From contig CAZVUY010000001.1 of NCBI GenBank assembly GCA_964630525.1, positions 114,901 to 178,900 on the forward strand: a stretch of DNA of 64,000 nucleotides, in the 5' to 3' direction. Every line of letters begins with the position of its first letter. The first letter of the stretch is position 1. This stretch comes from an uncultured Candidatus Saccharibacteria bacterium. GTDB taxonomy: Bacteria; Patescibacteriota; Minisyncoccia; Phycocordibacterales; WO2-35-19. Shown here piece by piece: positions 9,139-30,538 of the stretch. The notes under the pieces are model-generated. The model had not been told where the DNA came from. It did not search any database and saw only the letters and a list, made by a program, of their open reading frames with translations. Position numbers and translations under genes: made by a program.

Positions 9139-9215
9139 CCGCCCTTAGCTCAGTTGGTTAGAGCACAGAGCTTATACCTCTGGGGTCCCACGTTCGAATC
9201 GTGGAGGGCGGACCA
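9139..9215 (+). tRNA. tRNA, anticodon loop CUUAUAC gives anticodon UAU (Ile, AUA-decoding type)
   Basis: The cloverleaf has acceptor CCGCCCU/AGGGCGG, D-arm GCUC-AGUUGGUUA-GAGC, anticodon stem CAGAG/CUCUG, T-arm CCACG-UUCGAAU-CGUGG, discriminator A and an encoded CCA. The 1:72 pair is C:G, which is unusual. Confidence 0.6.
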
Positions 9216-9216
9216 G

Positions 9217-9291
9217 GCCGCCGTAGCTCAATGGATAGAGCAGTCCCGTCCTAAGGGAAAGATATGGGTTCGATTCCTGTCGGTGGCACCA
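9217..9291 (+). tRNA. tRNA-Arg (anticodon CCU)
   Basis: Acceptor GCCGCCG/CGGUGGC, D-arm GCUC-AAUGGAUA-GAGC, anticodon loop GUCCUAA, T-loop UUCGAUU and an encoded CCA. The overall sequence resembles known tRNA-Arg(CCU). Confidence 0.8.
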
Positions 9292-15738: not shown

Positions 15739-16743
15739 ATGAAAAATAAAAAGACCTCACCCCAAAGAAAACTAGGTCCCAAAAAATCATTGGGGCAAAA
15801 TTTTTTGAGAGATCCGAAAATTTTGAAAAAAATAGTTGATTTCGCTCAAATCGAAAAAGGTGACACTGTGGTAGAGGTTGGACCAGGCGAAGGAGGCTTG
15901 ACGGAAGAGTTGTTAAAACAAGCAAAAAAAGTAATCGCGATCGAAAAAGATGAGGAGCTAGCAAAAAAGCTGGAAGATAAATTTCGGGATCAAATTCTAA
16001 ACTCAAGACTGAAGATTTTGGTGGGAGATATATTGGAGCTGAGAGCTGAGAGCTTAGAGCTTGAAGGAAGAAATCAGAAAAACAAAAACTCTGAGCTCTT
16101 AGCTCCAAGCTATAAGCTTGTCGGCAATATTCCGTACTACATTACCGGCGCTTTGTTTAAAAAATTTTTGGAAACAGAGCAACAACCAAAATCGATCACC
16201 TTTGTTGTCCAAAAAGAAGTGGCGGAGAGGATAGTGGCCCGAAACCCCAACTCCGCTAAAGCTTCGCGGGGCAAGCAAAAGGAAAGTATTTTGAGTATAT
16301 CGGTCAAGGTATATGGGGAACCAAAATTTGGCGGAGTCATCAAGGCTGGTAGCTTCTTTCCTAAACCAAAAGTTGATTCGGCTATTTTAAGTATTAGGAA
16401 TATCAGCAAAGAAAGATTCAATGATCTAATCCCCCCAACCCCCTTTACTTTAAAGGGGGAGGAGGCTCGAATAGAAAATAATTTTTTTGAAGAAATAACT
16501 CCCCCAACCACTCTTACAACAAGAGGGGAGTTGGAAAATAAATTTTTTGAAATATTAAAGACTGGCTTTGCTCACAAAAGAAAGCTGCTACTCCGCAACC
16601 TCCTCGACGCAAAAGTGTCAAAGGGCACCTTTGACACTTTTGCGATTAAAGAGGTTTTTGGAGTTTGTGGGCTGGATGAGAAAGCGCGGGCTGAAGATTT
16701 GAGAGTGGAAGACTGGCTAGCGCTTACACAAAAACTGGCCTAA
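15739..16743 (+). CDS. rsmA: 16S rRNA adenine dimethyltransferase RsmA/KsgA carrying two in-frame insertions
   Basis: It has LGQNFLRDPKIL...VVEVGPGEGGLTEEL and NIPYYIT. It is about 334 aa against about 260-290 typical. The first insert is the palindromic AGCT element at 16035-16119. The second is a ~65-bp x2 tandem duplication at 16431-16560. Confidence 0.85.
   Translation: MKNKKTSPQRKLGPKKSLGQNFLRDPKILKKIVDFAQIEKGDTVVEVGPGEGGLTEELLKQAKKVIAIEKDEELAKKLEDKFRDQILNSRLKILVGDILELRAESLELEGRNQKNKNSELLAPSYKLVGNIPYYITGALFKKFLETEQQPKSITFVVQKEVAERIVARNPNSAKASRGKQKESILSISVKVYGEPKFGGVIKAGSFFPKPKVDSAILSIRNISKERFNDLIPPTPFTLKGEEARIENNFFEEITPPTTLTTRGELENKFFEILKTGFAHKRKLLLRNLLDAKVSKGTFDTFAIKEVFGVCGLDEKARAEDLRVEDWLALTQKLA
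16035..16119. repeat. AGCT-rich palindromic miniature element inside the rsmA reading frame
   Basis: The left arm is ggagctgagagctgagagcttagagcttgaagg, an A-rich loop follows, and the right arm is ctctgagctcttagctccaagctataagctt. The same family occurs at 22327-22420, 22831/23247, 23857-23925, 53065-53115 and 55205-55280. Confidence 0.65.
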
Positions 16744-16833: not shown

Positions 16834-17151
16834 ATGGTTTTAAGATTTTCATCTGTTTTGTTTCTGGTATTCGTTGTTAGCCTGTTTTTCTACCAGAAAA
16901 GTTACGCATTTATTGGTTTTGGTGGCAACATTATTGCTGTTACTCCTTGTAGCGTTGGAGTATTGTTAGTTGTTGGTCCTCCACGAGGGGGAGTTTTTTT
17001 GTTGCCACCAGGAGCAAAAATTTATCCGTTCTTTAGTATAAAACCTGGATCTTGGGTTTTGGGTGCCTATGCCCCAGTTGGAACTTGTGTTGTGGGCTTT
17101 ATTCCCGTACCGGTACAAGGGACCATTCTCATGCTTGGAACTTCTGGGTAG
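16834..17151 (+). CDS. Hypothetical small secreted Gly/Pro/Val-rich protein (first gene of co-directional secretion-like cluster)
   Basis: It has an N-terminal signal-like hydrophobic segment and no motif I recognise. Confidence 0.35.
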   Translation: MVLRFSSVLFLVFVVSLFFYQKSYAFIGFGGNIIAVTPCSVGVLLVVGPPRGGVFLLPPGAKIYPFFSIKPGSWVLGAYAPVGTCVVGFIPVPVQGTILMLGTSG

Positions 17152-17192
17152 TAACCTTGGTTATTAAGACAAATTGTTGATATAATTTTGGT

Positions 17193-18032
17193 ATGGTTTT
17201 GCCTAGCCGAAAAGTTTTGAGTTTGATGGTGCTCACCATCGCTTTGGTCGCTTCGATCATTATTGTTTTTGGTAAAGAAAAATCCGGCCAAGCGATCAAT
17301 TTTGCCAACAACTTAGTGGCAGGGGAGAAGTTTAATATCCCAGAAAATGACGGCTGGCAAACAGAGGTCAACCAAGTAGCCAAGCCAATCGACGTCCCCG
17401 AGCTTGAAGCTGAAGAGCAGACGGTCACTGATACCGTCTCCACCACCATCCTCTCCAACTACCTGGCTCTAAAACAAAATGACGCTCTCACCCAGGAGTC
17501 GGCACAAGAACTTATCGATCAGGCATCTGATTATATAAAACAAAACACCCCAACCAAGACACAGTTGGCAGATTTGAAAATAGTGGAAAGCAGTAAAGAG
17601 TCTATAGCCACCTATGGAGAAACCCTCGGTGAAATATTAAGAAGGAACAAACCAAAAAATTTTATAGACGAGATCTCAGTCATAGAAAAAATTGTTGGTG
17701 GGACAAACAACAAATCTATAAATAACGAACTTGAGATAGTGATAAAAAATTACCAGTCACTGGCAACAGAAATAAAAAAAATGCCAGTTCCTAAAATACT
17801 TGCCAAAACAAATCTGGAAATGATCAGTGGCCTAGAGGGAATAACCTATGGTCTTGAAGAAATAAAGAAAATCTCAAATGACCCTTTGCTAGGATTGGAG
17901 GGAATAAAGGTCTATAAGTTGGGAGGAAACTTGTTTATACAAGCACTCAAAACGGCAACCGAATTTATAAAACAAAGTAATATTGACTATAAACAGGGTA
18001 GTGGTGGTTATTACCTTTTTTACGGCATATAA
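17193..18032 (+). CDS. Hypothetical bitopic membrane protein (N-terminal TM, helical ectodomain)
   Basis: It has the TM segment LSLMVLTIALVASIIIVF. Its topology is compatible with a VirB8/VirB10-like accessory protein, but no motif supports that. Confidence 0.4.
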   Translation: MVLPSRKVLSLMVLTIALVASIIIVFGKEKSGQAINFANNLVAGEKFNIPENDGWQTEVNQVAKPIDVPELEAEEQTVTDTVSTTILSNYLALKQNDALTQESAQELIDQASDYIKQNTPTKTQLADLKIVESSKESIATYGETLGEILRRNKPKNFIDEISVIEKIVGGTNNKSINNELEIVIKNYQSLATEIKKMPVPKILAKTNLEMISGLEGITYGLEEIKKISNDPLLGLEGIKVYKLGGNLFIQALKTATEFIKQSNIDYKQGSGGYYLFYGI

Positions 18033-18041
18033 TTAAATAAA

Positions 18042-19331
18042 ATGCCAGAAAAAAATAGAAAAAAATTCAATAAATACTTTGGGTTTTTATCCATAGTTTT
18101 AATTTCTCTGTTTATTTTTTCTCCAATAGTGGTCCATAGAGCTAGCGCTCAACTTTTTGTACCAGTCTGGGATCCTGCCAACTTATCCGCCAACACAGTT
18201 ACCGCATCGAATGCCACCAGTCTCTCAATAAAGGAGCATATTTTAGACGCCATTGTTTACAAGGTATTGGATCTTATAATACAAAAAATGGCCGCAAGTA
18301 CCGTTAATTGGATAAACAGCGGGTTTAAAGGAAAACCCACTTTCATCACAAACCCTGGAGCCTTTTTTCAAGACGTTGGTGATAAAGTAGCGGGTCAATA
18401 TATATACGCCAACCCAAATCTAAACTTCCTCTGTGGACCAATCAGTGGTCGAATAAAAATTGCCCTTTCAAACAAATACCGTGGCAACGATATTAGGTGG
18501 CAGTGTACCCTTACTGACGTGGCGGGCAATATGGAAGATTTCATAAATGATTTTGACAAGGGTGGCTGGGATAAATTTTTCAGATTGACTCAAGATCCTC
18601 AGAACAACCCAATCGGTGCCTACATTCAAGCCGAAGGGGAACTGGCAAGACGAATTGCCAAAGAAACGGATGAGAAAAATAAAGAACTTAGTTGGGGTAA
18701 AGGTTTTTTTTCTACAACAAAATGTCCGGCTGGTCGCAGTATAACTAACGTAGTAGATAATCCAGAAGGTGGGAAGACGGTTACTTATGAGGACGGATCA
18801 ACCATAAACCAAATGCCTGACCCGAGCCTAAAGGTTGGAGGATGCGGAGTTAAAGAAAACATAGTTACACCAGGGTCAGTTGTTGAGGGACAACTGGGAG
18901 AGGTTCTCAGTATTGGCGGTAAAAAACTAGCTGTTGCCGATGAGATAAATGAAATAATAAGTGCACTACTTAACCAACTGGTCAGCAAAGCTTTTAGTGG
19001 ACTTGCGAGTCTGAGTCAACGCAACCCGACAAACGAAGGGGGGCGTTCATTTACAGAGTTATTGCACAGCTCCACAACCGATTCGGTTATTGATAACTAT
19101 ATAGAGTCGTCAACAGAAACCCTTCAACAGGCTATCCAAAATTCTATTGACAATCCTTACAATCCTTACGCCTGCAGAGATAATCCAAACCTCCCAGAGT
19201 GTCAAGTGCCTCAAGGACAGGTTGGTGGTAGTGGAGGAATAGATGGTAGTGGCGGAACAAGGTCATCCTGTGATCCAACCATAGAAACTTGCGAAGCCCA
19301 AGGAGCGCCAGGTGGTGGGCGAGGGAGATAA
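18042..19331 (+). CDS. Hypothetical secreted/anchored protein
   Basis: It has an N-terminal TM/signal (FGFLSIVLISLFIFSPIVV), several Cys and a Gly-rich tail. Confidence 0.45.
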   Translation: MPEKNRKKFNKYFGFLSIVLISLFIFSPIVVHRASAQLFVPVWDPANLSANTVTASNATSLSIKEHILDAIVYKVLDLIIQKMAASTVNWINSGFKGKPTFITNPGAFFQDVGDKVAGQYIYANPNLNFLCGPISGRIKIALSNKYRGNDIRWQCTLTDVAGNMEDFINDFDKGGWDKFFRLTQDPQNNPIGAYIQAEGELARRIAKETDEKNKELSWGKGFFSTTKCPAGRSITNVVDNPEGGKTVTYEDGSTINQMPDPSLKVGGCGVKENIVTPGSVVEGQLGEVLSIGGKKLAVADEINEIISALLNQLVSKAFSGLASLSQRNPTNEGGRSFTELLHSSTTDSVIDNYIESSTETLQQAIQNSIDNPYNPYACRDNPNLPECQVPQGQVGGSGGIDGSGGTRSSCDPTIETCEAQGAPGGGRGR

Positions 19332-19342
19332 AATTTTTAAAC

Positions 19343-21748
19343 ATGGATATTTTAAAAAATACCAAAAAACCGACGATTAAAAAGATATTAACGATTATTG
19401 TTATAGTCACTATAACAATAGGGGTTTTGGGATTTCCTGATAAAACTGTTCTGGCAGATGTAAGTTTGCTTCAAGCAGCATTGGGACCGGGTGCCATAGG
19501 GTTGGGCATGATGGGTGTAGATGTTTTTGAGGTTATGGCAAAAGGTACAGCAGAAATGCTAATTAAAATTTCAGGTTTATTTCTAACAATAACAGGAAAG
19601 ATGTTTGACTATGTTGTTGATTTTACAATCCTCAATATGGCCCAGAGAGTTGGTAATTCCGAGGGAGGATTAGGGGCTAGCATTAGCGCGTCTTGGGCAT
19701 CTTTGCGTGATATAGCAAACATGTTGTTTATTTTTGTACTTTTGTACGTAGCCTTTAAAGCGATATTTGATTTAGACTTTGGTAGCGTAAGTAAGTCAAT
19801 CAGAAATATTATTATTGTTGCCCTACTAATTAACTTTAGTCTCTTTTTCTCGAAAGTAGTGATAGACGCCTCAAATATTGTGTCCATTGGATTCTATAAC
19901 TCTATAGTAACGGCTAACACCAGGAGTGTACAAGGAGAGGGTGCGGTGGTTGGTAACCAAACTATTTCAACTGGTTATATGCGGTTACTTGGACTAACAA
20001 AGTGGTTTGATTCAAAAATACTGGAAAAAACAAAAATGACTGACGCAAAACAAATACTGGCTTATGGAATTTTAACATTCATATTTATGATGGTGGTAAC
20101 AGTGGTTTTGCTTATCGCCACAATAATGCTGTTGGCTAGATTTGTCATGCTTATATTTATCATGATCCTTTCGCCACTTGCCCTAATTGCCATTATAGTT
20201 CCAGGTATGAGAGGTTATTTTGATAAGTGGTTTCATGCCCTAATAGACCAATCCTTTTTTGCCCCAGTTTTCCTTGCCTTAACTTGGGTAGTATTCAAAA
20301 TAGCCTCCACTCCCGGTTTTATAGTCGGTGGTACAACAATAATCGCTTCGCAGGGTGCCTCATACACCGATCTGATGTCCGAGGCACCATCTGGTGGAGT
20401 GCTAGCCCTTGTGCTTAATTACGCATTGATAATAGGATTTACAATCGCGTCTCTGGTGATCTCCAAACAAATGGCGAGCAGGACCGCCGGGTTTACAGCC
20501 ATCAGTGGTGGTATAGGTGCCGGTGCTATTGGTGGCGCGGCGATACTAGGAAGACAAACTATTGGGAGGGGGGCAAAAATGCTCGCCGAATCAAGCAAAC
20601 TTCGAGATGCGGCTTCTGCTGGCAAATGGTATTCGGGAGCTGCCCGAGCAGGCCTTTGGACGGCTGACAAGGGGGCAGGTGGTAGTTTTGATTTGAGAGC
20701 AACCGACACTTTAAAAAAGGTTCCGGGGCTTGGTAAGGAACTAGATCTGTTGGGCAAAGCGGGTGGTAAGGGTGGTTTTGTTAAAGCGGTTGAACAAAAA
20801 GCAGATGATAAAGCTAAATACGCTAAGCGTGTTTATGGTCAAACTGCGACTGAAACTGAAAAAGCGCGGGAATTGGAGATAGATTATAACAAGCAAAAAT
20901 CTTTAGATGAAATTAGGATTAAAACAGAAAGAGAAAAGATGGCTCGCGAGAAAGAAACTATTCATAATAGAAACATTATCAATAGAGATAGGTACTTCAA
21001 TGACTCAAGGGTGGCTGGAGACCAAAGACTTATAGATATTCAAAATGATTTTGAGTTTAAAAAAGACGAGTATGAAAAGGCAAAGAAATCAGGAACAAAA
21101 ACCAAGGAAGAGTTGGAAGAGCTAATGAAAGCCAGGGATGAAAGTAGAGAAAACATGGAAAAAACTCAGACATCTATCGCTGATGAGGTATTCAAAGGGG
21201 ATGTTGATTATGTGAACACTAGGGAAGCAGCCAAGTCAAGCAAAGAAGAGCTACGGAAAGCGAAAGAGAGGTTGAAAATGAACAAAGAAAATAAGTTTGA
21301 TGATAATGAATATTTGGATGAAGTGCAAAACCTAAAGAAAGAATGGGTAGCCAAAAAAGAAGCGGGTAAAAGGAGGATGATAGAATTTGCGGATAGAGTA
21401 GAAAAAGGTTCACCGGTTTCAACGATGGTGGGAGGGTTGGCTGGTGGCGCCTTAGGAACAATATTTGGGGGACCTATTGGGACGCTGATTGGAGCTGGAG
21501 CTGGTGCGGGAGGTGGCAGCTGGGCGGGCGGCAAGCTACCTAAGCGAGCTAACTGGGCAGGAAACACAGAGGCGGGAAGAAAAATAAGAGCGGCAGCCGA
21601 AGGAAGAGATAAAAAAGATCCTAAGAAACTTAAGAAAGAGATAGATGATTTGTTTGGTATAAAAAATGAAGAAGGGGATGGTCAAAGTGGTGACGAAGGA
21701 AATAAAAAAGAAGGCGAGGAAGATAAAGATAAGAAAAAAGAATCGTAA
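19343..21748 (+). CDS. Polytopic membrane protein with long charged coiled-coil C-terminus (VirB6/TrbL-like architecture)
   Basis: The first ~400 aa hold at least 6 hydrophobic helices. A K/E-rich region and GGxGG repeats follow. The likely start is MDILKNTKKP at 19343. Confidence 0.5.
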   Translation: MDILKNTKKPTIKKILTIIVIVTITIGVLGFPDKTVLADVSLLQAALGPGAIGLGMMGVDVFEVMAKGTAEMLIKISGLFLTITGKMFDYVVDFTILNMAQRVGNSEGGLGASISASWASLRDIANMLFIFVLLYVAFKAIFDLDFGSVSKSIRNIIIVALLINFSLFFSKVVIDASNIVSIGFYNSIVTANTRSVQGEGAVVGNQTISTGYMRLLGLTKWFDSKILEKTKMTDAKQILAYGILTFIFMMVVTVVLLIATIMLLARFVMLIFIMILSPLALIAIIVPGMRGYFDKWFHALIDQSFFAPVFLALTWVVFKIASTPGFIVGGTTIIASQGASYTDLMSEAPSGGVLALVLNYALIIGFTIASLVISKQMASRTAGFTAISGGIGAGAIGGAAILGRQTIGRGAKMLAESSKLRDAASAGKWYSGAARAGLWTADKGAGGSFDLRATDTLKKVPGLGKELDLLGKAGGKGGFVKAVEQKADDKAKYAKRVYGQTATETEKARELEIDYNKQKSLDEIRIKTEREKMAREKETIHNRNIINRDRYFNDSRVAGDQRLIDIQNDFEFKKDEYEKAKKSGTKTKEELEELMKARDESRENMEKTQTSIADEVFKGDVDYVNTREAAKSSKEELRKAKERLKMNKENKFDDNEYLDEVQNLKKEWVAKKEAGKRRMIEFADRVEKGSPVSTMVGGLAGGALGTIFGGPIGTLIGAGAGAGGGSWAGGKLPKRANWAGNTEAGRKIRAAAEGRDKKDPKKLKKEIDDLFGIKNEEGDGQSGDEGNKKEGEEDKDKKKES

Positions 21749-21753
21749 ATAAT

Positions 21754-22326
21754 ATGGAGGAGAGTAATAAAATATTAAAAGAACAGATAGAAAAATTGCC
21801 AACAGCGCTTAAAAATTTTGTGCTTAGCAATGAGTGGACAAAAAAATTGAGAGTATACCTGGATAGTCTTCAGCTGGAAGAGTGGCAGAAAGTTTCGGTA
21901 GAAAACGAAGTGTTTTTGATCTTGATGGGTTTCGAAGAGTATGCAAATTTACCAGGCAACATATCCGAAAATACCGAAATGGATTTTGAGGTAGCCGAAA
22001 AAATATCGGAGTTTGTAATAAAAGATATTTTGAAACCAGTAGCAGATTTGGTAGTAAAAGAATTTGAAAAATCGGAACAACCGCCATCCAGTTCAATCGG
22101 CAACTCATTCGAACGTATCATCTTAAACCAAGCGAGGGCGATGCAGCCCGCCCGCCTCGCTAGCGAGAGCGTTGCGGGCGGGCCAGCCCGCGAAGCGGGT
22201 AGTGGTAGCCAGCAACCAGCACCTAGCAGCCGGGTTCCGGACAATCTGCCGACTGAAGATTTGAAACCAAAACCTACAACACCAAATTATTCTGGGCAGG
22301 ATCCGTATAGAGAACCGGTGGAGTAG
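21754..22326 (+). CDS. Hypothetical acidic cytoplasmic protein with REP-hairpin-encoded low-complexity C-terminus
   Basis: The C-terminal residues ...ARAMQPARLASESVAGGPAREAGSG... are encoded by the GC hairpin copy at 22147-22182. Confidence 0.45.
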   Translation: MEESNKILKEQIEKLPTALKNFVLSNEWTKKLRVYLDSLQLEEWQKVSVENEVFLILMGFEEYANLPGNISENTEMDFEVAEKISEFVIKDILKPVADLVVKEFEKSEQPPSSSIGNSFERIILNQARAMQPARLASESVAGGPAREAGSGSQQPAPSSRVPDNLPTEDLKPKPTTPNYSGQDPYREPVE

Positions 22327-22420
22327 GGAGCTTGGAGCTAAAAGCTTAGAGCTTAGAGGAGAAAAATAAAAAATGATATAATTTTGAAAGCTTACAGCTC
22401 TAAGCTCTAAGCTCTAAGCT
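22327..22420. repeat. AGCT-rich palindromic miniature element filling the intergenic spacer exactly (stop-to-start)
   Basis: The sequence is ggagcttggagctaaaagcttagagcttagagg, an A/T loop, then aagcttacagctctaagctctaagctctaagct. Confidence 0.65.
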
Positions 22421-22423
22421 AAA

Positions 22424-22843
22424 ATGCGTTTTCAAATCCCACAATTCATCGACGTTGAAGATAAAATATTTGGTCCTTTTACCTTGAAGCAATTTATCTA
22501 CTTAGCCGGGGGGGCCAGTATCGCCCTCGCCTGCGTTACTATTTTCGGCTTAGTTTTGGGGCTCATGATCGCCTCACCGATCATCATCCTCGCCGCCGCG
22601 CTCGCTTTTTATAAGGTCAACAACAGACCGTTCATCAACATGCTCGAGTCTGCTTTCAAATATCTCACCAAAGACAAGCTTTATATTTGGCAAAAAAGCG
22701 AAAAAACTGAAGCTGAGATGGTGGCGGAAGAGAAAAAGTATAGCTCGGTCATTGTACCCAATCTTGGTGATAGCAAACTCAAAGACATGAACTGGCAATT
22801 GGATGTGAAGAAAAAGGAAGATGATCTATTAGCTAAGAGCTGA
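22424..22843 (+). CDS. Small two-TM membrane protein (VirB3-like position and topology)
   Basis: It is 139 aa with a hydrophobic hairpin LAGGASIALACVTIFGLVLGLMIASPIIILAAALAF. It lies upstream of the VirB4-like ATPase, as in Gram-positive T4SS operons. Confidence 0.4.
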   Translation: MRFQIPQFIDVEDKIFGPFTLKQFIYLAGGASIALACVTIFGLVLGLMIASPIIILAAALAFYKVNNRPFINMLESAFKYLTKDKLYIWQKSEKTEAEMVAEEKKYSSVIVPNLGDSKLKDMNWQLDVKKKEDDLLAKS

Positions 22844-22863
22844 GAGCTTGGAGCTTAGAGTAG
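22831..22863. repeat. Left half-arm of AGCT palindromic element
   Basis: The sequence agctaagagctgagagcttggagcttagagtag supplies the stop codon of the upstream gene. Confidence 0.55.
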
Positions 22864-22866
22864 AAA

Positions 22867-23235
22867 ATGCTAAAAACTTATAGAGATTTACTCATATGGA
22901 AAAGGTCGATAGATTTGGCAACAAAAGTATATAAAGTTACAGAAATTTTTCCAAAATCAGAAATATACGGGATTGTATCCCAAATGAGAAGATCGGCTGT
23001 TTCTATATCTTCAAACATAGCAGAGGGAAGGAACAGGGGCACAAGAAAAGATTTTGCTCAATTTTTGAGAATAGCGTTGGGTTCTACAGCGGAACTAGAA
23101 TCTCAGACAGAGATATCAAAAAATTTGAATTTTATAAACCAGATTGAATATTCACAGATAATCTCTGAGACAAATGAAATAGGAATGATGTTGCGTGCTA
23201 TAATTAGAAAGCTGGACTCTAAGCTCCAAGCTTAA
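22867..23235 (+). CDS. Four-helix-bundle protein of the '23S rRNA intervening-sequence protein' family
   Basis: It is 122 aa with YRDLLIWKRSIDLATKVYKVTEIFPKSEIYGIVSQMRRSAVSISSNIAEG, typical of the TIGR02436-like family. Half-arms of the AGCT element flank it on both sides. Confidence 0.75.
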   Translation: MLKTYRDLLIWKRSIDLATKVYKVTEIFPKSEIYGIVSQMRRSAVSISSNIAEGRNRGTRKDFAQFLRIALGSTAELESQTEISKNLNFINQIEYSQIISETNEIGMMLRAIIRKLDSKLQA

Positions 23236-23247
23236 AGCTCTAAGCTT
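23212..23247. repeat. Right half-arm of AGCT palindromic element
   Basis: The sequence ctggactctaagctccaagcttaaagctctaagctt encodes the last residues and the stop of the four-helix-bundle gene. Confidence 0.55.
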
Positions 23248-23250
23248 TTT

Positions 23251-23871
23251 ATGAAAAATGCTACTCAAGAATTTGTACCGATAGACGATGTGCGCGATGG
23301 GATAGCCATCCTCAAAAGCGGTGGGATGCGCGGCGTACTCATGGCTTCAAGCGTAAACTTCTCCCTCAAGTCAGAAGAGGAGAGGCAGGCTATCCTATTC
23401 CAATTCCAAGATTTCTTAAACTCTCTGGATTTTTCGGTCCAGATCATCGTCCAATCAAGAAAGCTCGATATCAGACCCTATATCGCCCTTTTGGAGAACA
23501 GGCACAAAGAGCAAACCAACGACCTGATGAAAATCCAGATCGAACAATACATTGCTTTCATTAGAAGTTTTACCGAATCGACCAACATCATGACCAAAAA
23601 CTTCTTCATTGTGGTCCCATATGATGCCGCCATCATCTCTACCAAAACAGGGTTGTTGGACAATTTGCGAGGCAATAGGAACAAAGAGACAAAGGAAGAA
23701 GATTTCGAAGAAAGGCGCAATCAGCTCGAGCAGCGAATGGGAGTGGTAGAGCAGGGCTTGGTGCGCTCCGGCGTCAGGGTAGCCAAGCTCGGTACCGACG
23801 AAGTGGTCGAGTTGTTTTATAAGATATTTAATCCGGGAGAAACGGAGAAACCAATCAAGCTTGGAGCTTGA
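23251..23871 (+). CDS. VirB4/TrbE/CagE N-terminal-domain-like protein (separate ORF)
   Basis: The motif IDDVRDGIAILKSGGMRGVLMASSVNFSLKSEEERQAILFQFQDFLNSL resembles the N-terminal domain of VirB4-family ATPases. Its stop codon lies inside a palindromic element. Confidence 0.5.
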   Translation: MKNATQEFVPIDDVRDGIAILKSGGMRGVLMASSVNFSLKSEEERQAILFQFQDFLNSLDFSVQIIVQSRKLDIRPYIALLENRHKEQTNDLMKIQIEQYIAFIRSFTESTNIMTKNFFIVVPYDAAIISTKTGLLDNLRGNRNKETKEEDFEERRNQLEQRMGVVEQGLVRSGVRVAKLGTDEVVELFYKIFNPGETEKPIKLGA

Positions 23872-23925
23872 AGCTAATAGCTTAGAGGAAAAAACTTTAA
23901 ACTCCAAGCTCTTAGCTCTAAGCTT
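23857..23925. repeat. AGCT-rich palindromic miniature element separating the two VirB4-like ORFs
   Basis: The sequence is aagcttggagcttgaagctaatagcttagagg, then aaaaaactttaaa, then ctccaagctcttagctctaagctt. Confidence 0.65.
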
Positions 23926-23933
23926 TCAAAAAT

Positions 23934-25727
23934 ATGTTCGACTTTTTAAAGAAAAAACCAAAAGAAAATCTGACCACCGTTTCGATCTTGCCCAAATCGA
24001 TCACCGAGAGCTCCGAGCTTGAGCTGCGCGATATCTTGGCCCCGAGCGCCCTCAAGGTCAATGTTAAAGAACTGAATTTGGGCGAGAAAGTAGTGAGAAC
24101 TTTTTTCGTCATCTCTTATCCTAGGTTTTTGTCCGAAGATTGGTTCGCACCGGTCATCAACATGGACAAAATGTTTGATATTTCTATCTTCATCCACCCA
24201 GTTGAGACCGCGACCGTCCTACGTGGTTTTCAAAAAAAGGTAGCCGAAGTACAAAGCCAGATCAGGATCAGGGAAGAGAAGGGGTTGGTCCGCGACCCGA
24301 TTTTAGACACCGCCTATCAAGATTTGGAGAATTTGCGCGACCAACTCCAACAAGCCCAAGAGAAAATGTTTGAGGTCGGTCTCTATGTATCCATCTACGC
24401 CAACAATACCGACGAGCTCGACAAGGCCGAATCCGAGATCAAATCGATCCTCGAATCAAAGCTAGTCTATATGAAGCCAGCCCTCTTCCAGCAAGAGCAA
24501 GGCTTTCGCAGCATCCTACCAATCGGTGAGGACGAACTCGCTGTCCACTCGAAAATAAACTCTTCGCCGCTTTCAAGTATTTTCCCTTTTATCTCCTTCG
24601 ACCTCACTTCCGACAAGGGTATCCTCTACGGTATCAACCGACACAACTCCTCTCTGGTACTTTTCGACCGTTTCTCGCTTGAGAACTACAATTCCGTCAC
24701 CTTCGCCAAATCCGGTTCTGGTAAATCATACGCTACCAAACTCGAGATTCTTCGTACTTTGATGTTCGATACCGAAGTAATTGTGATGGATCCGGAAAAC
24801 GAGTACCAATATATGGCTGAAGCGGTGGGTGGTCGTTATTTCAATATTTCTCTCAATTCCGACCATCATATCAATCCGTTTGAGCTGCCGGTGCCCGGAG
24901 AAGATGAGTCGAGCGCCTCGGTCTTGCGCTCCCAAATCATCAACTTGGTAGGTCTTTTCCGGATCATGATGGGTGGCCTCACCGCTGAAGAAGACGCGAT
25001 CATCGACCGAGCTATCACTGAGACTTACGCCCTCAAAGACATCACCGCTGATTCTGATTTTAAAAATGTTGAACCACCACTTCTCTCCGACTTCGAGCTC
25101 GTGCTAGGTGGGATGGAGGGAGGGGAGTCACTCGCTCAACGCCTTTCCAAATACACCCGCGGCACCTGGTCCAACTTCATCAACAAACCTTCCAATATCG
25201 ACATCAATAAAAAGTTTGTCGTCTTCTCGATTCGCGACATGGAAGACGAGCTCAAACCGGTCGCTATGTACATCGTCATGCACTACATCTGGAATGCTAT
25301 TAGGCGGGAGATCAGGAAGCGTCTCTTGGTGATCGACGAGGCCTGGTGGATGATGAAATCTGAAGACACCGCCTCCTTTCTCCTGTCGCTCGCCAAACGT
25401 GGCCGCAAATATTATCTCGGGCTCGCCACCATCACTCAAGACGTCGACGACTTTTTGAAATCACCTTATGGCATGCCGATCGTCACCAACTCTTCAATCC
25501 AAATACTACTCAAACAGTCGCCAACCACCATCGACCGACTGCAGGAAGTTTTCAACCTGACCAACGAAGAGAAATACTTGCTCATCGAGTCGGGGGTAGG
25601 TGAGGGAATATTTTTCGCCGGCCTCAAACACGTAGCGATCAAGATCATTGCCTCCTACACCGAAGACCAGATCATCACCTCCGATCCGTCTCAAATCTTG
25701 GCGATCAAAAAACAAAATGCAAAATAA
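23934..25727 (+). CDS. VirB4/TraC/CagE-family type IV secretion ATPase (ATPase domain)
   Basis: It has the Walker A FAKSGSGKSY, the Walker B LLVIDEAWWMM, and the C-terminal LGLATITQDVDDF and KQSPTTIDRL motifs. Confidence 0.8.
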   Translation: MFDFLKKKPKENLTTVSILPKSITESSELELRDILAPSALKVNVKELNLGEKVVRTFFVISYPRFLSEDWFAPVINMDKMFDISIFIHPVETATVLRGFQKKVAEVQSQIRIREEKGLVRDPILDTAYQDLENLRDQLQQAQEKMFEVGLYVSIYANNTDELDKAESEIKSILESKLVYMKPALFQQEQGFRSILPIGEDELAVHSKINSSPLSSIFPFISFDLTSDKGILYGINRHNSSLVLFDRFSLENYNSVTFAKSGSGKSYATKLEILRTLMFDTEVIVMDPENEYQYMAEAVGGRYFNISLNSDHHINPFELPVPGEDESSASVLRSQIINLVGLFRIMMGGLTAEEDAIIDRAITETYALKDITADSDFKNVEPPLLSDFELVLGGMEGGESLAQRLSKYTRGTWSNFINKPSNIDINKKFVVFSIRDMEDELKPVAMYIVMHYIWNAIRREIRKRLLVIDEAWWMMKSEDTASFLLSLAKRGRKYYLGLATITQDVDDFLKSPYGMPIVTNSSIQILLKQSPTTIDRLQEVFNLTNEEKYLLIESGVGEGIFFAGLKHVAIKIIASYTEDQIITSDPSQILAIKKQNAK

Positions 25728-25728
25728 C

Positions 25729-25802
25729 ACCCCTCCCAACCCTCCCCAAAAGAGAGGGTTCCAAACCCCCTTCCCCTTCGGGGAAGGGTTGAGGATGGGG
25801 TG
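25729..25802. repeat. GC-rich hairpin cluster (CCCTTCCCC-TTCG-GGGAAGGG etc.)
   Basis: It sits directly after the VirB4 stop. It is terminator-like and related in style to the other GC-rich REP-like hairpins. Confidence 0.45.
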
Positions 25803-25825
25803 GAAATGATATAATCAAGTGAAAT

Positions 25826-26263
25826 ATGGAAGAAGAAGTCCAACCAAAACAAAAACTAATTAGAAGGTCAGTGCCGCAACCTGCCCAACCAGAACAAAAA
25901 AAAGAGCGAATAAAAGTTTGGGTTGGTTTTATGTTAGCAGCCATTGTTTTGTTTATTGATGGGTTCCAAGCTTTGTTGGGCACCTTTGCCATAGGTATTG
26001 CCATAAATTCGGTTATAACAGCTGTGGCTTACTTTGCTTTCTGGGTCATATTTATGATCCTGGGAGTGTCTTTTATGGGAAATCCGAAAAGTTTTGCCGC
26101 CATAGGAGTGTCCGGGTTGGCAGAATTAATTCCAGCATTAAACATGCTGCCGGCATTGAGCGCTGGAGTCATATCTGTGATCTTGATCACTATGGCCGAA
26201 GACAAAGGTGGTATAATTGGTGAAGCTGCCGGCTTAATGCAAGGTAAATTCAAACAAGGATGA
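25826..26263 (+). CDS. Small polytopic membrane protein
   Basis: Three hydrophobic helices follow a basic N-terminus. Confidence 0.45.
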   Translation: MEEEVQPKQKLIRRSVPQPAQPEQKKERIKVWVGFMLAAIVLFIDGFQALLGTFAIGIAINSVITAVAYFAFWVIFMILGVSFMGNPKSFAAIGVSGLAELIPALNMLPALSAGVISVILITMAEDKGGIIGEAAGLMQGKFKQG

Positions 26264-27252
26264 GAATTTTTAGTAAAATCACAATATTATTTTTTGGTTT
26301 CTTATTGGTGCCAGCACTCTCTTTTGCCCAAACATTTGGCGCTTCTACCTTTGCAAATGAACTCGGTGTAGAGATCATCCCCACCTATCCCAAACCAAAC
26401 CAAAACGTTTCAATCAACCTTACTCTTTACAGTGGGGATCTGAATTCTGCAGATATCACTTGGTATCAAAACGGTAAAAATGTTTTGAGCGGCAAAGGGG
26501 AGAAACGCTACTCCTTCAAAATGGGTCCGGCTGGTACAGAAACAGATATAGAAATCAGAATAAAGCTCATGGGCGGCAGCTCCTTTACCAAAACTTTTAC
26601 TTTAGGCGGAGCCGGTGTGGATCTGGTCTGGGAAGCTAGCACTTACACTCCTCCATTTTACAAAGGCAAAGCGATGCATGGGTTCCAGGGCTATCTGAAA
26701 GTGGTAGCCATGCCTGATTTTATAAGGAATGGCAATCGAATCTCACCTAAAAACCTAATTTATGAATGGTCAAACAGTACCAGTGTTTACGAGGATCAGT
26801 CTGGCTATGGTCGAGACACTTTGGTCTTAAATGGTTCGTTGCTTGGCCGAGAAGAGCAGGTCGACGTTTTGGTCACCGATCCAACTACCAACCTGGTTGC
26901 TACTAACTTTATTATTATAAATCCGATTGAGCCGGAAATTATTTTCTATGAGAACAGTCCTTACTATGGACCCATTTTCGATAAGGCCATCAGGAGTTTG
27001 GAATTGGAAGCTGAAGAAACTCAAATTTTAGCTGCCCCTTACAACCTCTCAAAAGAGCCTTTGGGCAAATTGGTGTACGATTGGCGACTCAACGGTGTCT
27101 CGGTGCCAGAGCTCAAAAATTCTCGCACTGCTATCTTCAAAAAACCAGAAGAAGGGAGCGGTCAATCAGCGATCTCTCTCAGTATTGAAAATTTGAATCG
27201 CATTCTCCAGCAAGGGAGCGGCCAAGTAAATATCCAATTCAAAAATGATTAA
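26260..27252 (+). CDS. Secreted protein (signal peptide, beta-rich)
   Basis: It has the signal peptide ILFFGFLLVPALSFA. Its start overlaps the previous stop (ATGA). Confidence 0.5.
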   Translation: MRIFSKITILFFGFLLVPALSFAQTFGASTFANELGVEIIPTYPKPNQNVSINLTLYSGDLNSADITWYQNGKNVLSGKGEKRYSFKMGPAGTETDIEIRIKLMGGSSFTKTFTLGGAGVDLVWEASTYTPPFYKGKAMHGFQGYLKVVAMPDFIRNGNRISPKNLIYEWSNSTSVYEDQSGYGRDTLVLNGSLLGREEQVDVLVTDPTTNLVATNFIIINPIEPEIIFYENSPYYGPIFDKAIRSLELEAEETQILAAPYNLSKEPLGKLVYDWRLNGVSVPELKNSRTAIFKKPEEGSGQSAISLSIENLNRILQQGSGQVNIQFKND

Positions 27253-28168
27253 AAGATTTTATTTTTCAGTTATTTTGTTCGTTGTCTTGCTGGGTTTTAT
27301 GGCTCCGGTTTTGACTGCAGTCGCCCAAACAGCAGCGGATCGTGAATATACCGTACTAGCCCCACTGCCTGGCACCACTCTTGAAAATTGCGTATCTGGT
27401 CCAGAATGTAAAACAACCTTAGCAAAGTACCTACCCAGCCTCTTCAAATTATTGGTTGGTTTGGCAGCAGCAGGAGCGGTTTTGCGGATCGTTTTCGGTG
27501 GTTTCCTTTACATATCTTCAGATGCTCTCCAAGGCAAAGAAGATGGCCGGACCATGATCTGGAATTCGGTCAAAGGCTTGGTCTTGATAATCGGCGCCTG
27601 GCTCATTCTCTACACTATCAACCCCGGACTGCTTGAACTGCGACTCAACATAGAAACAGTCGAAATCAGCGGTCCACCCTCAAGTGCTAATGGTGGGGTA
27701 TTGTCTGGTGGTGGCACTCCAGGTAGAGCGATGACTCAAGCAGAAATAGATGAGAGCAATGCAATAAGAGAGGCTTTAGAAAAAGTGGGAGTTTACACCT
27801 ACACCGGCCCTTGCACCAAGGGACAGACCAGAGGTTGCGTAAATTTAAACGGATTAACCCAGACAACTCAAAGTGGGCTGGATGCATTAACTAAAATGTT
27901 AGCCGAAAATGGAGCGGCACGATTTATAACATTGACTGGAGGCACAGAAGGTGGGCATTCGAGTACTGGAGGGCACCCCGCTGGGGACTCTGTAGATATA
28001 GGAAGATCGGCTAACAGTGCTAGTTATACAGCGCTGAGTAATTTTATAATCTCCCGTGGTGGCACCCCAGTTCCAACTTCTTATGGGAACCTTTATACCA
28101 TCCAAATCAACGGCCGACCAGTAACATTTTTGGATGAAAATGATCATTGGCACGTAACTTTCAAATAA
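27245..28168 (+). CDS. Secreted protein with TrbC/VirB2-pilin-like hydrophobic hairpin plus Gly/Thr-rich C-terminal domain
   Basis: A signal peptide is followed by LPSLFKLLVGLAAAGAVLRIVFGGFLYISSD...GLVLIIGAWLILYTI, two hydrophobic helices separated by a short polar loop as in TrbC/VirB2. Confidence 0.45.
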   Translation: MIKRFYFSVILFVVLLGFMAPVLTAVAQTAADREYTVLAPLPGTTLENCVSGPECKTTLAKYLPSLFKLLVGLAAAGAVLRIVFGGFLYISSDALQGKEDGRTMIWNSVKGLVLIIGAWLILYTINPGLLELRLNIETVEISGPPSSANGGVLSGGGTPGRAMTQAEIDESNAIREALEKVGVYTYTGPCTKGQTRGCVNLNGLTQTTQSGLDALTKMLAENGAARFITLTGGTEGGHSSTGGHPAGDSVDIGRSANSASYTALSNFIISRGGTPVPTSYGNLYTIQINGRPVTFLDENDHWHVTFK

Positions 28169-28169
28169 A

Positions 28170-29408
28170 ATGTCAAAGAAAATATTATTGATTGTTGGAA
28201 TAATCTTGATCCTCGCCGTAGCCGCCTTCTTTATTTTCCGAGGCCAACCTCAAAACGGGGAAGAGGGTTTCGGTTTTTCTTTTGGTGACTTTTTACCCTT
28301 TGGTAGTAGCGGGAATATCGGCAGTGAGGCTGTTGTTGATACCACACCCAAAAAAGAAGAGAAGCCAAACCAGGCCGTTTCTGGTGTGGTGCCGAAACTC
28401 CGAAAAATATCGAGTGGACCAGTGGCTGGAGCAGCGATTTTCAACATTGGTAGCACCACCTACGTCAGGTTTGTCGAGAAGGGTACTGGCAATGTTTATG
28501 AAGCGAGATCTGATTCTTCGGAGGTAAAAAGGTTGACCAACACCACCATCCCTAAAATAATTCGTGCTTTTTGGTTGGGAGACGGCTCCGGTTTCCTAGC
28601 TCAAACACTGGTACCTGATACCGAGATAATCGAAACCACTTTTGTAAAACTTGGCAAAAATACAGCGACCAGCTCGACCGAAAGCCTGACCCCATTTACT
28701 ACCACTTTAAGCAAATTGCCGACCGGTATAGCTGAGCTCAGTATTAGGCCTGATGGAACAAAAATATTCTATTACACTCTCTCTCAAAATGGTTCCAATT
28801 GGTACACCAGCAATCCAGATGGTACTGGTGCCACTCTAGTCAATAACCATCCGCTCTCTGAATGGTTGCCGGCTTGGGTTTCTAACAATCTGATCACTAT
28901 GCAAACAAAAGGAAGTGTCGGAGTCACTGGCCACCTCTATCATTTTGATCCAACTACCAAAGGACTTAGAAAAGTGGGGGTACAAACTTTTGGCTTATCC
29001 ACCAAATCAAAAGATGGGAACATCACTCTTTTCTCAAAAGGTGGCAGTATCCCTCGTTTATTCGTCTTTAATAGCAAAGAAAACAATACTACTGATAGCA
29101 CCAGGGACACTCTGGCCGAAAAGTGTGTTTGGTCTGCCAAGGACAGTCTTTCGGTCTATTGTGGAGTGCCTGACAGCTTTGGTCCTGGCCTTTATCCAGA
29201 CAGTTGGTACAAGGGACTCACTAATACCGAGGATTCGATTCGCAAAATAGACCTGAATAACCTGGTTGACTACACCGTTTCCTATCTTTCTGACGAATCA
29301 GGCGAAAAAATAGACGTGGTAGACCCAAGGATCTCAAAAGATGAGTCTCATCTTGTGTTTAACAACAAAATCGATGGTTATTTGTGGGTTTTGAGAATAG
29401 GGGAATAG
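28170..29408 (+). CDS. Secreted/anchored protein, beta-rich
   Basis: It has the N-terminal TM segment ILLIVGIILILAVAAFFIF. Confidence 0.5.
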   Translation: MSKKILLIVGIILILAVAAFFIFRGQPQNGEEGFGFSFGDFLPFGSSGNIGSEAVVDTTPKKEEKPNQAVSGVVPKLRKISSGPVAGAAIFNIGSTTYVRFVEKGTGNVYEARSDSSEVKRLTNTTIPKIIRAFWLGDGSGFLAQTLVPDTEIIETTFVKLGKNTATSSTESLTPFTTTLSKLPTGIAELSIRPDGTKIFYYTLSQNGSNWYTSNPDGTGATLVNNHPLSEWLPAWVSNNLITMQTKGSVGVTGHLYHFDPTTKGLRKVGVQTFGLSTKSKDGNITLFSKGGSIPRLFVFNSKENNTTDSTRDTLAEKCVWSAKDSLSVYCGVPDSFGPGLYPDSWYKGLTNTEDSIRKIDLNNLVDYTVSYLSDESGEKIDVVDPRISKDESHLVFNNKIDGYLWVLRIGE

Positions 29409-29461
29409 TGTTGTATTATTTATATAGTGATTGTGTCTTTTATAAGAGTCATCATTAAAAA

Positions 29462-30538
29462 ATGAAAAAAAATATTATTGGCGGACTTATCGGACTGGCT
29501 TTATTGCTCCCAGGTGTGGCCTCTGCGACAGTAAATGAGCTTGAGGAATTGCGCGCTCGGATCAACAGTTTGCTTGCTATAGTGGCCCAACTTCAATCCC
29601 AGCTTGCGTCCCAAACAGGGGCATCCGAAGGGGCTTTTTGTTTTACTTTTAATACAGATCTAAAAATAGGGGATAGGGGTAGTGGGACAGGATACCTACA
29701 CAAAGCTCTTGAAAGAGAAGGGTTTTCTATACCAGACAGCGAGAAGCCACAAAAGGATGGGGAGACTATTAACGATAGCTTTTTTGGTGAAGCGACCGCT
29801 TCAAGAGTGAGTGCTTTTCAAGAAAAATATAGAAGTGAAATTTTGACTCCGGCTGGTCTTTCCAACGGTACTGGCTATCTCGGCGCTAGGACCAGAGCAA
29901 AATTAAATCAACTTTATGGGTGCAACCAAACACCTTGCACAGACGTAACCGGATCAAGGTGTGCTTACATAGAAAACCCAAATTGGTATCCAAAACCCAT
30001 AGCCATGTGCGACTATCCTGCTCCTCCGGAAAATTGCAAATACGTAGATGGGCCAAATTTTAATCCGACCACTCAGTGTGGCAAAATACTGAGCTGTTCT
30101 ACCACCATAAACCCAATCGCTTGCACCCTGGAGGCCAAACTTTGTTCTGACGGTAAAACTTATGTTGGCCGCACCGGCCCAAAATGTGAGTTTTCTGCTT
30201 GTCCTAATACAACAAATACACTTAAAATTGTTTCCCCAAACGGAGGGGAAAGATGGGAAACAGGTAACATCTACACCATTTCATGGGCAGGAACTAGTGC
30301 CAGCCCCGATTATTATGTTGGTAGAGTAGCACTTTACAAAGGCAATGATTTTGTGATCGACTTAGTGCCTTTTATGAAGCGCTCACTCCTAAATGGGTTT
30401 GTTCAGTATAAAGTACCGGCAACCAATGTACTGGGTCATGATTTTAGAGTTCAAGCTATTCTTTACAAAGGCGATTCAGAAATAATTCAGGATTGGAGCG
30501 ATGGTTATTTTAGTATAATCTCCCCAACAACAGACTAG
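29462..30538 (+). CDS. Secreted protein with peptidoglycan-binding-like domain and Cys-rich C-terminal region
   Basis: A signal peptide is followed by GDRGSGTGYLHKALEREGF...ASRVSAFQEKY, a PG_binding_1-like region, then about 14 Cys. Confidence 0.55.
   Translation: MKKNIIGGLIGLALLLPGVASATVNELEELRARINSLLAIVAQLQSQLASQTGASEGAFCFTFNTDLKIGDRGSGTGYLHKALEREGFSIPDSEKPQKDGETINDSFFGEATASRVSAFQEKYRSEILTPAGLSNGTGYLGARTRAKLNQLYGCNQTPCTDVTGSRCAYIENPNWYPKPIAMCDYPAPPENCKYVDGPNFNPTTQCGKILSCSTTINPIACTLEAKLCSDGKTYVGRTGPKCEFSACPNTTNTLKIVSPNGGERWETGNIYTISWAGTSASPDYYVGRVALYKGNDFVIDLVPFMKRSLLNGFVQYKVPATNVLGHDFRVQAILYKGDSEIIQDWSDGYFSIISPTTD

Follow-up and report, generated by a model that had tools for sequence, protein, structure and literature searches.

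We analysed a 64-kb stretch of an uncultured Patescibacteria genome (contig CAZVUY010000001.1, positions 114,901 to 178,900; hereafter, the window) and found a gene cluster at 16834-30538 that is organized around a VirB4 ATPase. Together, our results make it likely that this cluster encodes a chromosomal, non-conjugative Patescibacteria type IV secretion system (T4SS) that derives from the monoderm MPF_FATA class, lies beside the replication origin (oriC) and acts as a pilus-building, wall-breaching machine for host contact. An original prediction, made from the letters of the window, had proposed an apparatus that resembles a T4SS, lacks both relaxase and coupling protein and serves secretion, uptake or cell contact; this is supported here and agrees with the published view of such systems (PMC12102498, PMC10633639). 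The same papers already describe this kind of system and its position beside dnaA in Paceibacteria, and the novelty that the prediction implied was thus overrated: the window holds a complete and clean example from Paceibacteria rather than a new kind of system. What our analysis adds are testable details, namely a candidate VirB5-like subunit, a fusion of pilin and peptidase domains, three conserved envelope parts and a hypervariability between strains that singles out components which probably touch the host. A large part of bacterial diversity belongs to the Patescibacteria, whose members live attached to host cells, and the T4SS, which is essential in the sole species tested, is among the few candidate machines by which they could extract resources.

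Organization of the cluster

The cluster comprises 14 intact open reading frames (ORFs) of 105-802 aa. All long ORFs between 16834 and 30538 lie on the + strand, as predicted, separated in order by 41, 9, 11, 5, 97, 23, 15, 62, 98, -4, -8, 1 and 53 nt. The prediction had counted 15 genes, and one of the 14 (22867-23235) is a 23S_rRNA_IVP gene that is no part of a secretion system. Of two predicted ATGA overlaps, the one at 26260 is present, while the overlap at 27245 is instead 8 nt long (ATGATTAA). Scans for promoters and terminators gave no signal above shuffle expectation and were uninformative on operon structure. The parts that concern the proposed system are the following.

17193-18032, + strand: g2, a protein of 279 aa anchored in the membrane at its N-terminus, probably an accessory part (hydropathy, comparison of loci)
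18042-19331, + strand: g3, a secreted protein of 429 aa whose N-terminal motif is of the VirB5/TrbJ type (NCBIfam and Pfam matches of homologues)
19343-21748, + strand: g4, a VirB6-like polytopic membrane protein (hydropathy, position)
22424-22843, + strand: a PrgI/VirB3-type small membrane protein (Pfam PrgI)
23251-23871, + strand: TrsD, the N-terminal domain of VirB4 as an ORF of its own (NCBIfam)
23934-25727, + strand: VirB4 ATPase, central and C-terminal parts, monoderm MPF_FATA type (NCBIfam, Pfam)
25826-26263, + strand: g10, a small polytopic membrane protein with three hydrophobic segments (hydropathy, iterative hidden Markov model (HMM) search)
26260-27252, + strand: g11, a secreted 330-aa protein with Ig-like beta-sandwich repeats (domains of orthologues)
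27245-28168, + strand: g12, a VirB2-like T4SS pilin domain followed by a C-terminal LAS-type zinc peptidase domain (Pfam, AlphaFold2 model)
28170-29408, + strand: g13, a protein of 412 aa anchored in the membrane, its ectodomain probably a beta-propeller (domains of orthologues)

Pfam scans covered 44 ORFs of the window, including every distinct ORF of at least 187 aa; about 10 non-overlapping ORFs of 108-181 aa, mostly outside the cluster, were left out. As the prediction had noted, no VirD4/type IV coupling protein (T4CP), VirB11 or relaxase domain was found among these 44 ORFs, and no integrase domain was found in them or in the cluster. Pfam and NCBIfam likewise yielded no match to the VirB7, VirB9 or VirB10 families within the cluster. 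A type IV pilin (8593-9075, GFTLIE motif) and PilB (41748-43427, minus strand, with an MshEN domain), which had been reported elsewhere in the window, were both located.

A VirB4 motor with a separate TrsD and a PrgI partner

The profile matches of the 23934-25727 product identify it as a bona fide VirB4. It carries Walker A FAKSGSGKSYATK and Walker B LLVIDEAWW motifs and matched NCBIfam conju_CD1110 at 3.8e-112 (375.9 bits against a cutoff of 325; profile positions 179-733 of 752), which bears out the VirB4/TraC-type ATPase that had been predicted. Further matches were to TraC-F-type (2.2e-57) and VirB4_CagE (1.5e-37) and, in Pfam, to P-loop_TraG (2.2e-27) and AAA_10 (7e-11). The best curated model is that of CD1110, an MPF_FATA prototype, and this match, with the labels of the relatives described below, suggests, by proxy rather than by a tree, a place in the Patescibacteria clade nested in MPF_FATA. 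An identity as a HerA/FtsK-type ATPase was rejected on the conju_CD1110 result; the protein does not group with those ATPases, and several of its neighbours match T4SS families.

The predicted separate ORF for the VirB4 N-terminal domain was also recovered. This ORF, TrsD, matched VirB4_plasma (4.1e-11, profile positions 101-233), TrsD/TraD (1.2e-7) and positions 2-167 of conju_CD1110, and it supplies the N-terminal ~170 positions that are missing from the VirB4 ORF; its precomputed Pfam annotation is TraC-like. We rejected the possibility that the split is a frameshifted pseudogene, because TrsD is a separate ORF of 185-272 aa (~210 aa) in 77/80 related loci and the split is a described feature of these systems (PMC12102498). 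The small PrgI protein passed the Pfam PrgI threshold (5.2e-10; 40.2 bits against a gathering score of 27), consistent with the VirB3-like role predicted for it. Its placement just upstream of VirB4 needed correction, however, as the IVP gene separates it from TrsD and VirB4.

The locus is conserved beside the replication origin

A scan of a genome collection with VirB4 returned 595 relatives, of which 80, all from metagenome-assembled genomes, were kept. Nearly all of these 80 are labelled Paceibacteria, Parcubacteria (Zambryski- or Taylorbacteria) or other Patescibacteria (~10 are labelled just 'bacterium'), and VirB4 identity across these species-level genomes is 77-93%. Complete 10-kb flanks were available for 41 loci, each from a different species. 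Their gene order is the same in 41/41, namely pcrA-rsmA-(variable)-g3-g4-PrgI-TrsD-VirB4-(g10)-g11-(g12)-g13-yidC-(rnpA)-dnaA-dnaN, and PrgI is present in every one. Median identity is highest for VirB4 (81%), lower for TrsD (63%) and PrgI (50%), and lowest, at 25-36%, for membrane and secreted parts.

In the window, the cluster is preceded by genes for an M23-LysM peptidase (minus strand), PcrA/UvrD and RsmA/KsgA, and is followed by YidC, RnpA and RpmH on the minus strand and then by DnaA and DnaN. The cluster therefore abuts oriC. Because the same order recurs at one site in all 41 genomes and no integrase, relaxase or T4CP domain was found in the cluster or the scanned window ORFs, the locus is a vertically inherited core locus and not a mobile element.

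The only pilin domain is fused to a predicted peptidase

A TrbC/VirB2-like hairpin protein had been predicted, and a pilin domain is indeed present; it is not a small stand-alone protein, however, but the N-terminal third of g12. The pilin part of g12 consists of a signal peptide and a helical hairpin (residues ~30-130) and scored just below threshold against Pfam T4SS_pilin (PF18895; 23 bits, gathering score 26.6). Among 59 positional orthologues, 57 matched T4SS_pilin (best 3.8e-12) and 5 matched TrbC/VirB2, and homologues are named 'pilin' by NCBI. Alignment of the pilin-domain family with Agrobacterium VirB2 was marginal (hhalign, E 0.018). By HMM search, 41/41 full-flank loci have at least one pilin-domain ORF, and the window has a single one. 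Most of the 70 pilin-domain ORFs from related loci extend C-terminally by 70-420 residues, and the membrane topology of VirB2 would place such an extension outside the cell.

The AlphaFold2 model of g12 (102 sequences; predicted local distance difference test score (pLDDT) 86.4) comprises a signal helix, a hairpin (59-91/95-125), a linker and an alpha/beta domain at 165-306. In this C-terminal domain H244, D251 and H301 are invariant and H238 and H303 are at least 90% conserved, and the domain shows the H-x(n)-D and H-x-H zinc-ligand motifs of the LAS/hedgehog-DD-peptidase (M15-like) fold. The only PDB profile matches of g12 were hedgehog N domains, aligned on the zinc-binding motif SLHYEGRAVD at E ~1, which is not significant alone. 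Orthologues carry Peptidase_M15_4 (three proteins), NlpC/P60 or CHAP domains. The motifs and the model thus indicate that the only pilin-domain protein of the cluster is fused to a predicted LAS-type (hedgehog/DD-peptidase fold) zinc peptidase, a fusion that could explain how a pilus passes through the cell wall.

The M23 peptidase gene just upstream of pcrA (12516-13499, minus strand) encodes two LysM domains, and tblastn found relatives in 7/41 full-flank loci. M23 and LysM domains are frequent in the VirB1-type matches of Patescibacteria, which in Paceibacteria are associated with virB4 (PMC12102498), and this peptidase could be a further wall-hydrolase partner.

VirB5-like and VirB6-like candidates

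Directly upstream of the VirB6-like g4 in 41/41 loci lies g3, a protein with a signal peptide followed by the motif AQ-x-VV-DP-x-N. Matches of its homologues (n = 116) point to the VirB5/TrbJ group: NCBIfam TrbJ was found in 67 (best 2.6e-7), TrbJ_Ti in 10 and VirB5 in 3, and several matched Pfam DUF4141, at best at 2.4e-8, with one passing the gathering score (33.7 bits against 30). The motif aligned with AQFVVSDP of Agrobacterium VirB5 over 27 columns only (hhalign, E 1.2e-3, probability 19%). The AlphaFold2 model of g3 was poor (pLDDT 62.9) and a fold search with it uninformative. We thus regard g3 as a VirB5-like candidate, that is, a minor pilin or tip subunit. We take TraJ of the Bacteroides conjugative transposons to be the counterpart of VirB6. 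In those transposons, a DUF4141 protein adjoins traJ (PMC10434189).

The topology and position of g4 agree with the VirB6/TrbL-like protein with a charged tail that had been predicted: ~6 hydrophobic segments in residues 16-367 precede a ~380-aa charged tail with a glycine zipper, and the gene is present in 41/41 loci. Of 46 orthologues, 2 matched TrbL and 1 matched TrbL_4, at about 1e-3; alignment with A. fabrum VirB6 was marginal (hhalign, E 0.028, over a conserved P...W stretch); and a PDB profile search with the membrane domain gave no match. Three homologues carry a precomputed PF19590 annotation, which we could not reproduce at E <= 0.01 and therefore disregarded. By sequence, a role for g4 as the VirB6 platform is weakly supported.

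Upstream of g3, g2 has one N-terminal hydrophobic segment and is found at this place in 20/41 full-flank loci at ~25% identity. It had no Pfam or PDB match; PDB profile searches with g2 and g3 returned nothing meaningful, their Ski7 matches being low-complexity.

Three further envelope parts and the variable ends of the cluster

Three further genes, g10, g11 and g13, encode conserved core parts of the envelope apparatus. An iterative HMM search placed a g10 family member downstream of VirB4 in 67/80 loci, nearly always within ~500 nt, and no Pfam family matched it. Both g11, which has a signal-type N-terminus, and g13, which has one N-terminal transmembrane segment, are present in 41/41 loci. 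Among 36 g11 orthologues, BiPBP_C was found in 9, and Ig_3 and PKD_3 also occurred; with weak matches to Ig domains in the PDB, g11 looks like an Ig-type beta-sandwich repeat protein. DPPIV_N, PD40 or DUF5050 was found in 5/36 g13 orthologues which, with a weak TolB match (E 0.011), suggests that the g13 ectodomain is probably a beta-propeller.

Three other ORFs of the cluster are less constant.

16834-17151, + strand: g1, a small hydrophobic or secreted 105-aa protein (no Pfam or NCBIfam match)
21754-22326, + strand: g5, an acidic 190-aa protein without a transmembrane segment (no Pfam or NCBIfam family match)
29462-30538, + strand: g14, a secreted protein of 358 aa in which a PG_binding_1-like segment stays below threshold (Pfam)

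The first and last of these had been counted as members of the cluster, and neither keeps its position in related genomes. Relatives of g1 were found by tblastn in only 3/80 loci, there on the opposite strand, and its membership in the system is doubtful. Partial relatives of g14 in other loci lie on the opposite strand, upstream of g2; g14 is a variable neighbour rather than a conserved member. Nor did its description as a peptidoglycan-binding-domain protein hold at threshold (PG_binding_1, E 0.012, 16.2 bits against 23). Relatives of g5 occupy the same position in 11/41 loci.

Surface parts vary between strains with identical VirB4

A VirB4 that is 100% identical to that of the window is encoded on contigs from other samples, including one that matches the window at 100% identity across 9.4 kb. 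In two other strains (loci L083 and L084), TrsD, VirB4 and the IVP protein are 100% identical to those of the window and PcrA is ~99% identical. Comparison of these metagenome assemblies revealed 60-64% identity in g4, 96% or 53% in g3, 97% or 58% in g2, 74% or 97% in g10 and ~80% in g12 (i.e., within 17193-28168, g2-g3-g4, g10 and part of g12 are replaced in the manner of cassettes, at 53-81% amino-acid identity). Allele replacement is thus concentrated in membrane and surface parts, a pattern suggestive of recombination in the surface components of the T4SS or of diversifying selection on them. Such variation would be expected of parts that meet a variable host surface.

Comparison with known systems

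VirB4 is found in 2,417/3,035 Patescibacteria genomes, nearly all in one clade nested in MPF_FATA, with TrsD, PrgI/VirB3, VirB6 and VirB2-like pilins (PF18895, PF04956) encoded near virB4 (Quinonero-Coronel et al. 2025, PMC12102498). The T4SS locus of Paceibacteria and Microgenomatia adjoins dnaA, dnaN, rnpA, ksgA and rpmH (PMC12102498). The cluster is a typical member of this kind, including its dnaA-side position. It shares with the Patescibacteria-clade T4SS, for example SEML1_0006-0019 of Ca. Southlakia epibionticum ML1, an MPF_FATA-type VirB4, a separate TrsD ORF, PrgI/VirB3, a VirB6-like protein, a VirB2-like PF18895 pilin, a wall hydrolase encoded downstream of virB4, a locus without relaxase or T4CP, and a chromosomal site near dnaA, dnaN, rnpA, rpmH and ksgA. 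Transposon sequencing showed that Ca. Southlakia cannot grow epibiotically without its T4SS genes and pilin array, and its T4SS was noted to lack coupling protein and relaxase (Wang et al. 2023, PMC10633639). Six pilins form an array in Southlakia, whereas here a single pilin-domain gene is fused to a LAS-type peptidase; the accessory set g2, g3, g10, g11 and g13 is specific at the sequence level to this Paceibacteria lineage, and essentiality has been demonstrated only in Saccharimonadia. In the cited papers on Patescibacteria T4SSs, we found no discussion of a VirB5-like motif protein or of pilin-hydrolase fusions, and no mention of conserved g10, g11 and g13 or of hypervariable surface parts under an identical VirB4.

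With the conjugative MPF_FATA systems (pCF10 Prg/Pcf, pGO1 Trs, C. difficile CTn2 CD1110 and pIP501), the cluster shares a CD1110-like VirB4, TrsD (pGO1), PrgI (pCF10), a polytopic VirB6/PrgH-like protein, a peptidoglycan hydrolase and the lack of an outer-membrane core. It differs from them in that no relaxase, T4CP (PcfC/TcpA), VirB8-like PrgL or PrgB adhesin was recognised, in having a VirB2-like pilin and a VirB5-like motif protein, both lacking in the Gram-positive systems, and in not residing on a mobile element. The pilus-biogenesis module of VirB/Trw systems (VirB2-VirB6; Agrobacterium, R388) offers the same set of roles, with a VirB5-like gene directly before a VirB6-like gene, the AQ(F/W)VV-DP N-terminal motif of VirB5 and a helical-hairpin pilin. 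In contrast to VirB/Trw, the window locus has no VirB7/VirB9/VirB10 core and no VirB11, its pilin carries an enzyme domain, and sequence similarity to VirB2, VirB5 and VirB6 is marginal.

A proposed pilus-building machine for host contact

From the VirB2, VirB3, VirB4, VirB5-like and VirB6-like roles, we infer a VirB-type pilus-biogenesis module without a substrate-recruitment module. Given this role set, the most likely product would be a short pilus or tube assembled on the single membrane. The LAS-type peptidase of g12 would cut peptidoglycan cross-links, either the cell's own or those of the host, and the Ig-like g11 and the beta-propeller g13 may serve as wall-spanning or contact parts. 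The resulting structure would link the episymbiont to its host cell.

Several points weigh against this reading. Paceibacteria systems are known from genes alone. The T4CP and relaxase negative covers 64 kb of the genome only, and VirD4 homologues are common elsewhere in Patescibacteria genomes (PMC12102498). The link between g3 and VirB5 is a ~30-residue N-terminal motif beside the signal peptide of a poorly modelled protein, and the VirB6 assignment has the slender sequence support given above (TrbL families in 3/46 orthologues, hhalign E 0.028, no PDB match). Finally, a 140-residue domain on the sole pilin-domain protein may be unsuited to VirB2-type filament packing. If so, g12 could act as a hydrolase tethered to the membrane, with a function equivalent to that of VirB1, and not as a filament subunit.

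Reviews call the role of the Patescibacteria T4SS 'completely unknown' and discuss effector export or pilus-mediated uptake of host molecules (PMC11665869, PMC12857230). For a pilus-building host-contact machine, import of host macromolecules is our tentative choice of direction; export of effectors is possible and slightly less probable, a role in attachment (adhesion) alone is improbable, and conjugation is very hard to credit as its function. We also considered a bolder form of this machine, an enzymatically armed pilus, which we rate as speculative and distinctly unlikely. Here, the sole VirB2-like subunit would display its LAS-type peptidase on the filament, g3 on the hypervariable VirB6 platform would set host specificity, and the filament would bore through the host wall and open a feeding conduit for macromolecules of the host. 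At the same position, sister genomes carry NlpC/P60, CHAP or other heads in place of the LAS-type peptidase. If this proposal is true, the allele swaps of g2-g3-g4, g10 and g12 under an identical VirB4 would amount to a host-range switch.

The alternative that survives best, although we consider it rather unlikely, is a dedicated nucleic-acid import machine that brings host DNA or RNA into a cell unable to make nucleotides. H. pylori ComB and archaeal Ced provide a precedent for inward transport by systems that are driven by a VirB4-family ATPase and lack relaxase, T4CP and VirB11; the locus resembles ComB in its absence of VirD4, VirB11 and relaxase. ComB, however, has a VirB7-10 outer-membrane core and passes DNA to ComEC, and no VirB7, VirB9 or VirB10 match was found in this cluster; CedA, CedA1 and CedA2 of Ced have no recognised counterpart here. 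Import has been proposed for Saccharibacteria because their T4SS is essential and comEC dispensable (PMC11665869, PMC12857230), and a 2026 preprint reports host-RNA feeding together with tubular structures, possibly T4SS pili, at the parasite-host interface (bioRxiv 10.64898/2026.06.21.733656). VirB4 also matched CedB (5.3e-9), but this weak, P-loop-only match is limited to ~70 residues of the ATPase core. Family scans (Pfam/NCBIfam) recognised no nucleic-acid-binding or nuclease component in the cluster, and no monoderm bacterial T4SS is known to import. Nucleic-acid import would in any case be a sub-case of the host-contact machine that we favour, and does not contradict it.

We judge it unlikely that the machine is devoted to exporting effectors or toxins that manipulate or permeabilise the host, as the T4CP-less Ptl and Brucella VirB systems do. 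This was the original speculation for Saccharibacteria (PMC10633639, PMC11665869), and several operon proteins with Sec signals, including the LAS peptidase fusion, are possible two-step substrates. Family scans of the cluster and the scanned window ORFs revealed no recognisable effector, chaperone or coupling protein, however, and secreted proteins that are conserved in 41/41 genomes in a fixed order fit structural parts better than cargo.

A role without any transport machine, in which VirB4 and TrsD power the insertion or display of surface proteins or remodel the cell's own wall, appears highly improbable. The fusion of the sole pilin-domain protein to a peptidoglycan-type peptidase, with M15_4, NlpC/P60 or CHAP in orthologues, and the neighbouring envelope-biogenesis genes for YidC and the M23-LysM peptidase would suit such a role. 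VirB3, VirB4 and VirB6-like parts together, however, are known only from T4SSs, and surface hypervariability between near-identical strains is more typical of interaction between cells than of housekeeping wall synthesis.

The least credible alternative is a conjugative system, or a relic of an integrated conjugative element, with relaxase and coupling protein encoded beyond the 64 kb examined: VirB4 is most similar to conjugative MPF_FATA ATPases (conju_CD1110) and VirD4 homologues are, as noted, frequent elsewhere in Patescibacteria, but no relaxase (MOB) or VirD4/TcpA was found among the 44 scanned ORFs, the same order recurs at one chromosomal site beside dnaA in 41 species with no bounding integrase or repeats, and all ORFs are intact, with VirB4 as similar across species as reported above. 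Relaxases occur in only 103/3,035 Patescibacteria genomes and near virB4 in 15, T4CP genes are rarely nearby, and the T4CP of Southlakia, unlike its T4SS genes, is dispensable (PMC12102498).

An IVP cassette and heptamer hairpins within the cluster

Three features in the middle of the cluster share a heptamer repeat.

22329-22420, no strand: a solo hairpin of (AGCTCTA)n heptamers in the g5-PrgI spacer (25-nt arms, 88% complementary, 42-nt loop)
22831-23246, + strand: an intervening sequence (IVS)-like cassette, comprising a 23S_rRNA_IVP four-helix-bundle ORF (22867-23235; Pfam 4.8e-38) and inverted repeats
23857-23924, no strand: a solo hairpin of the same (AGCTCTA)n family in the TrsD-VirB4 spacer (RNA fold -27.6 kcal/mol)

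The arms of the cassette (22831-22861/23216-23246) are 31-nt inverted repeats, 87% complementary, built of (AGCTCTA)n units, and the first solo hairpin has an RNA fold of -37.5 kcal/mol. AGCTCTA occurs 27 times in the window against 0.94 expected. The family of the IVP gene marks it as unrelated to secretion, and the gene is present in only 9/41 loci, at three different spacers. In 4/5 loci examined, inverted heptamer repeats of different, genome-specific sequence bracket it. 'Empty' heptamer hairpins occupy both spacers that neighbour the cassette in the window, and relatives carry the IVP gene in any of these three spacers. The unit has the look of an rRNA-IVS-type cassette that resides within an mRNA operon as a mobile element or as an RNA processing signal.

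The rsmA gene (15739-16743) contains in-frame palindromic insertions at 16037-16118, 16403-16531 and 16608-16644. A heptamer-repeat hairpin (-38.4 kcal/mol) codes for ~15-17 extra residues that are missing from 12 orthologues, and a perfect 17-nt palindrome is located at a second extra segment. A 69-nt segment present in the window is missing from two strains with identical VirB4 (334-aa versus 311-aa RsmA). These insertions are reminiscent of Rickettsia palindromic elements within coding genes.

Other features of the window

A large serine recombinase (Resolvase, Recombinase and Zn_ribbon_recom domains; 48301-49779, minus strand), the sole recombinase in the window, lies ~18 kb from the cluster. 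It abuts a tRNA gene (48240-48312) and is followed by ORFs without a family to ~52000, with a higher G+C content (0.46-0.50); the segment from 48240 to ~52000 is probably an integrated element or prophage remnant unrelated to the T4SS. A tmRNA gene is located at 5586-6013 (minus strand) and two adjacent tRNA genes at 9139-9288. A DUF559/REase_MTES_1575 endonuclease-like gene (39627-39977, minus strand) sits among ruvC, yebC and ruvB, and from ~60.7 kb a very large ORF for a secreted protein (>1,078 aa, signal-like N-terminus) runs off the end of the window.

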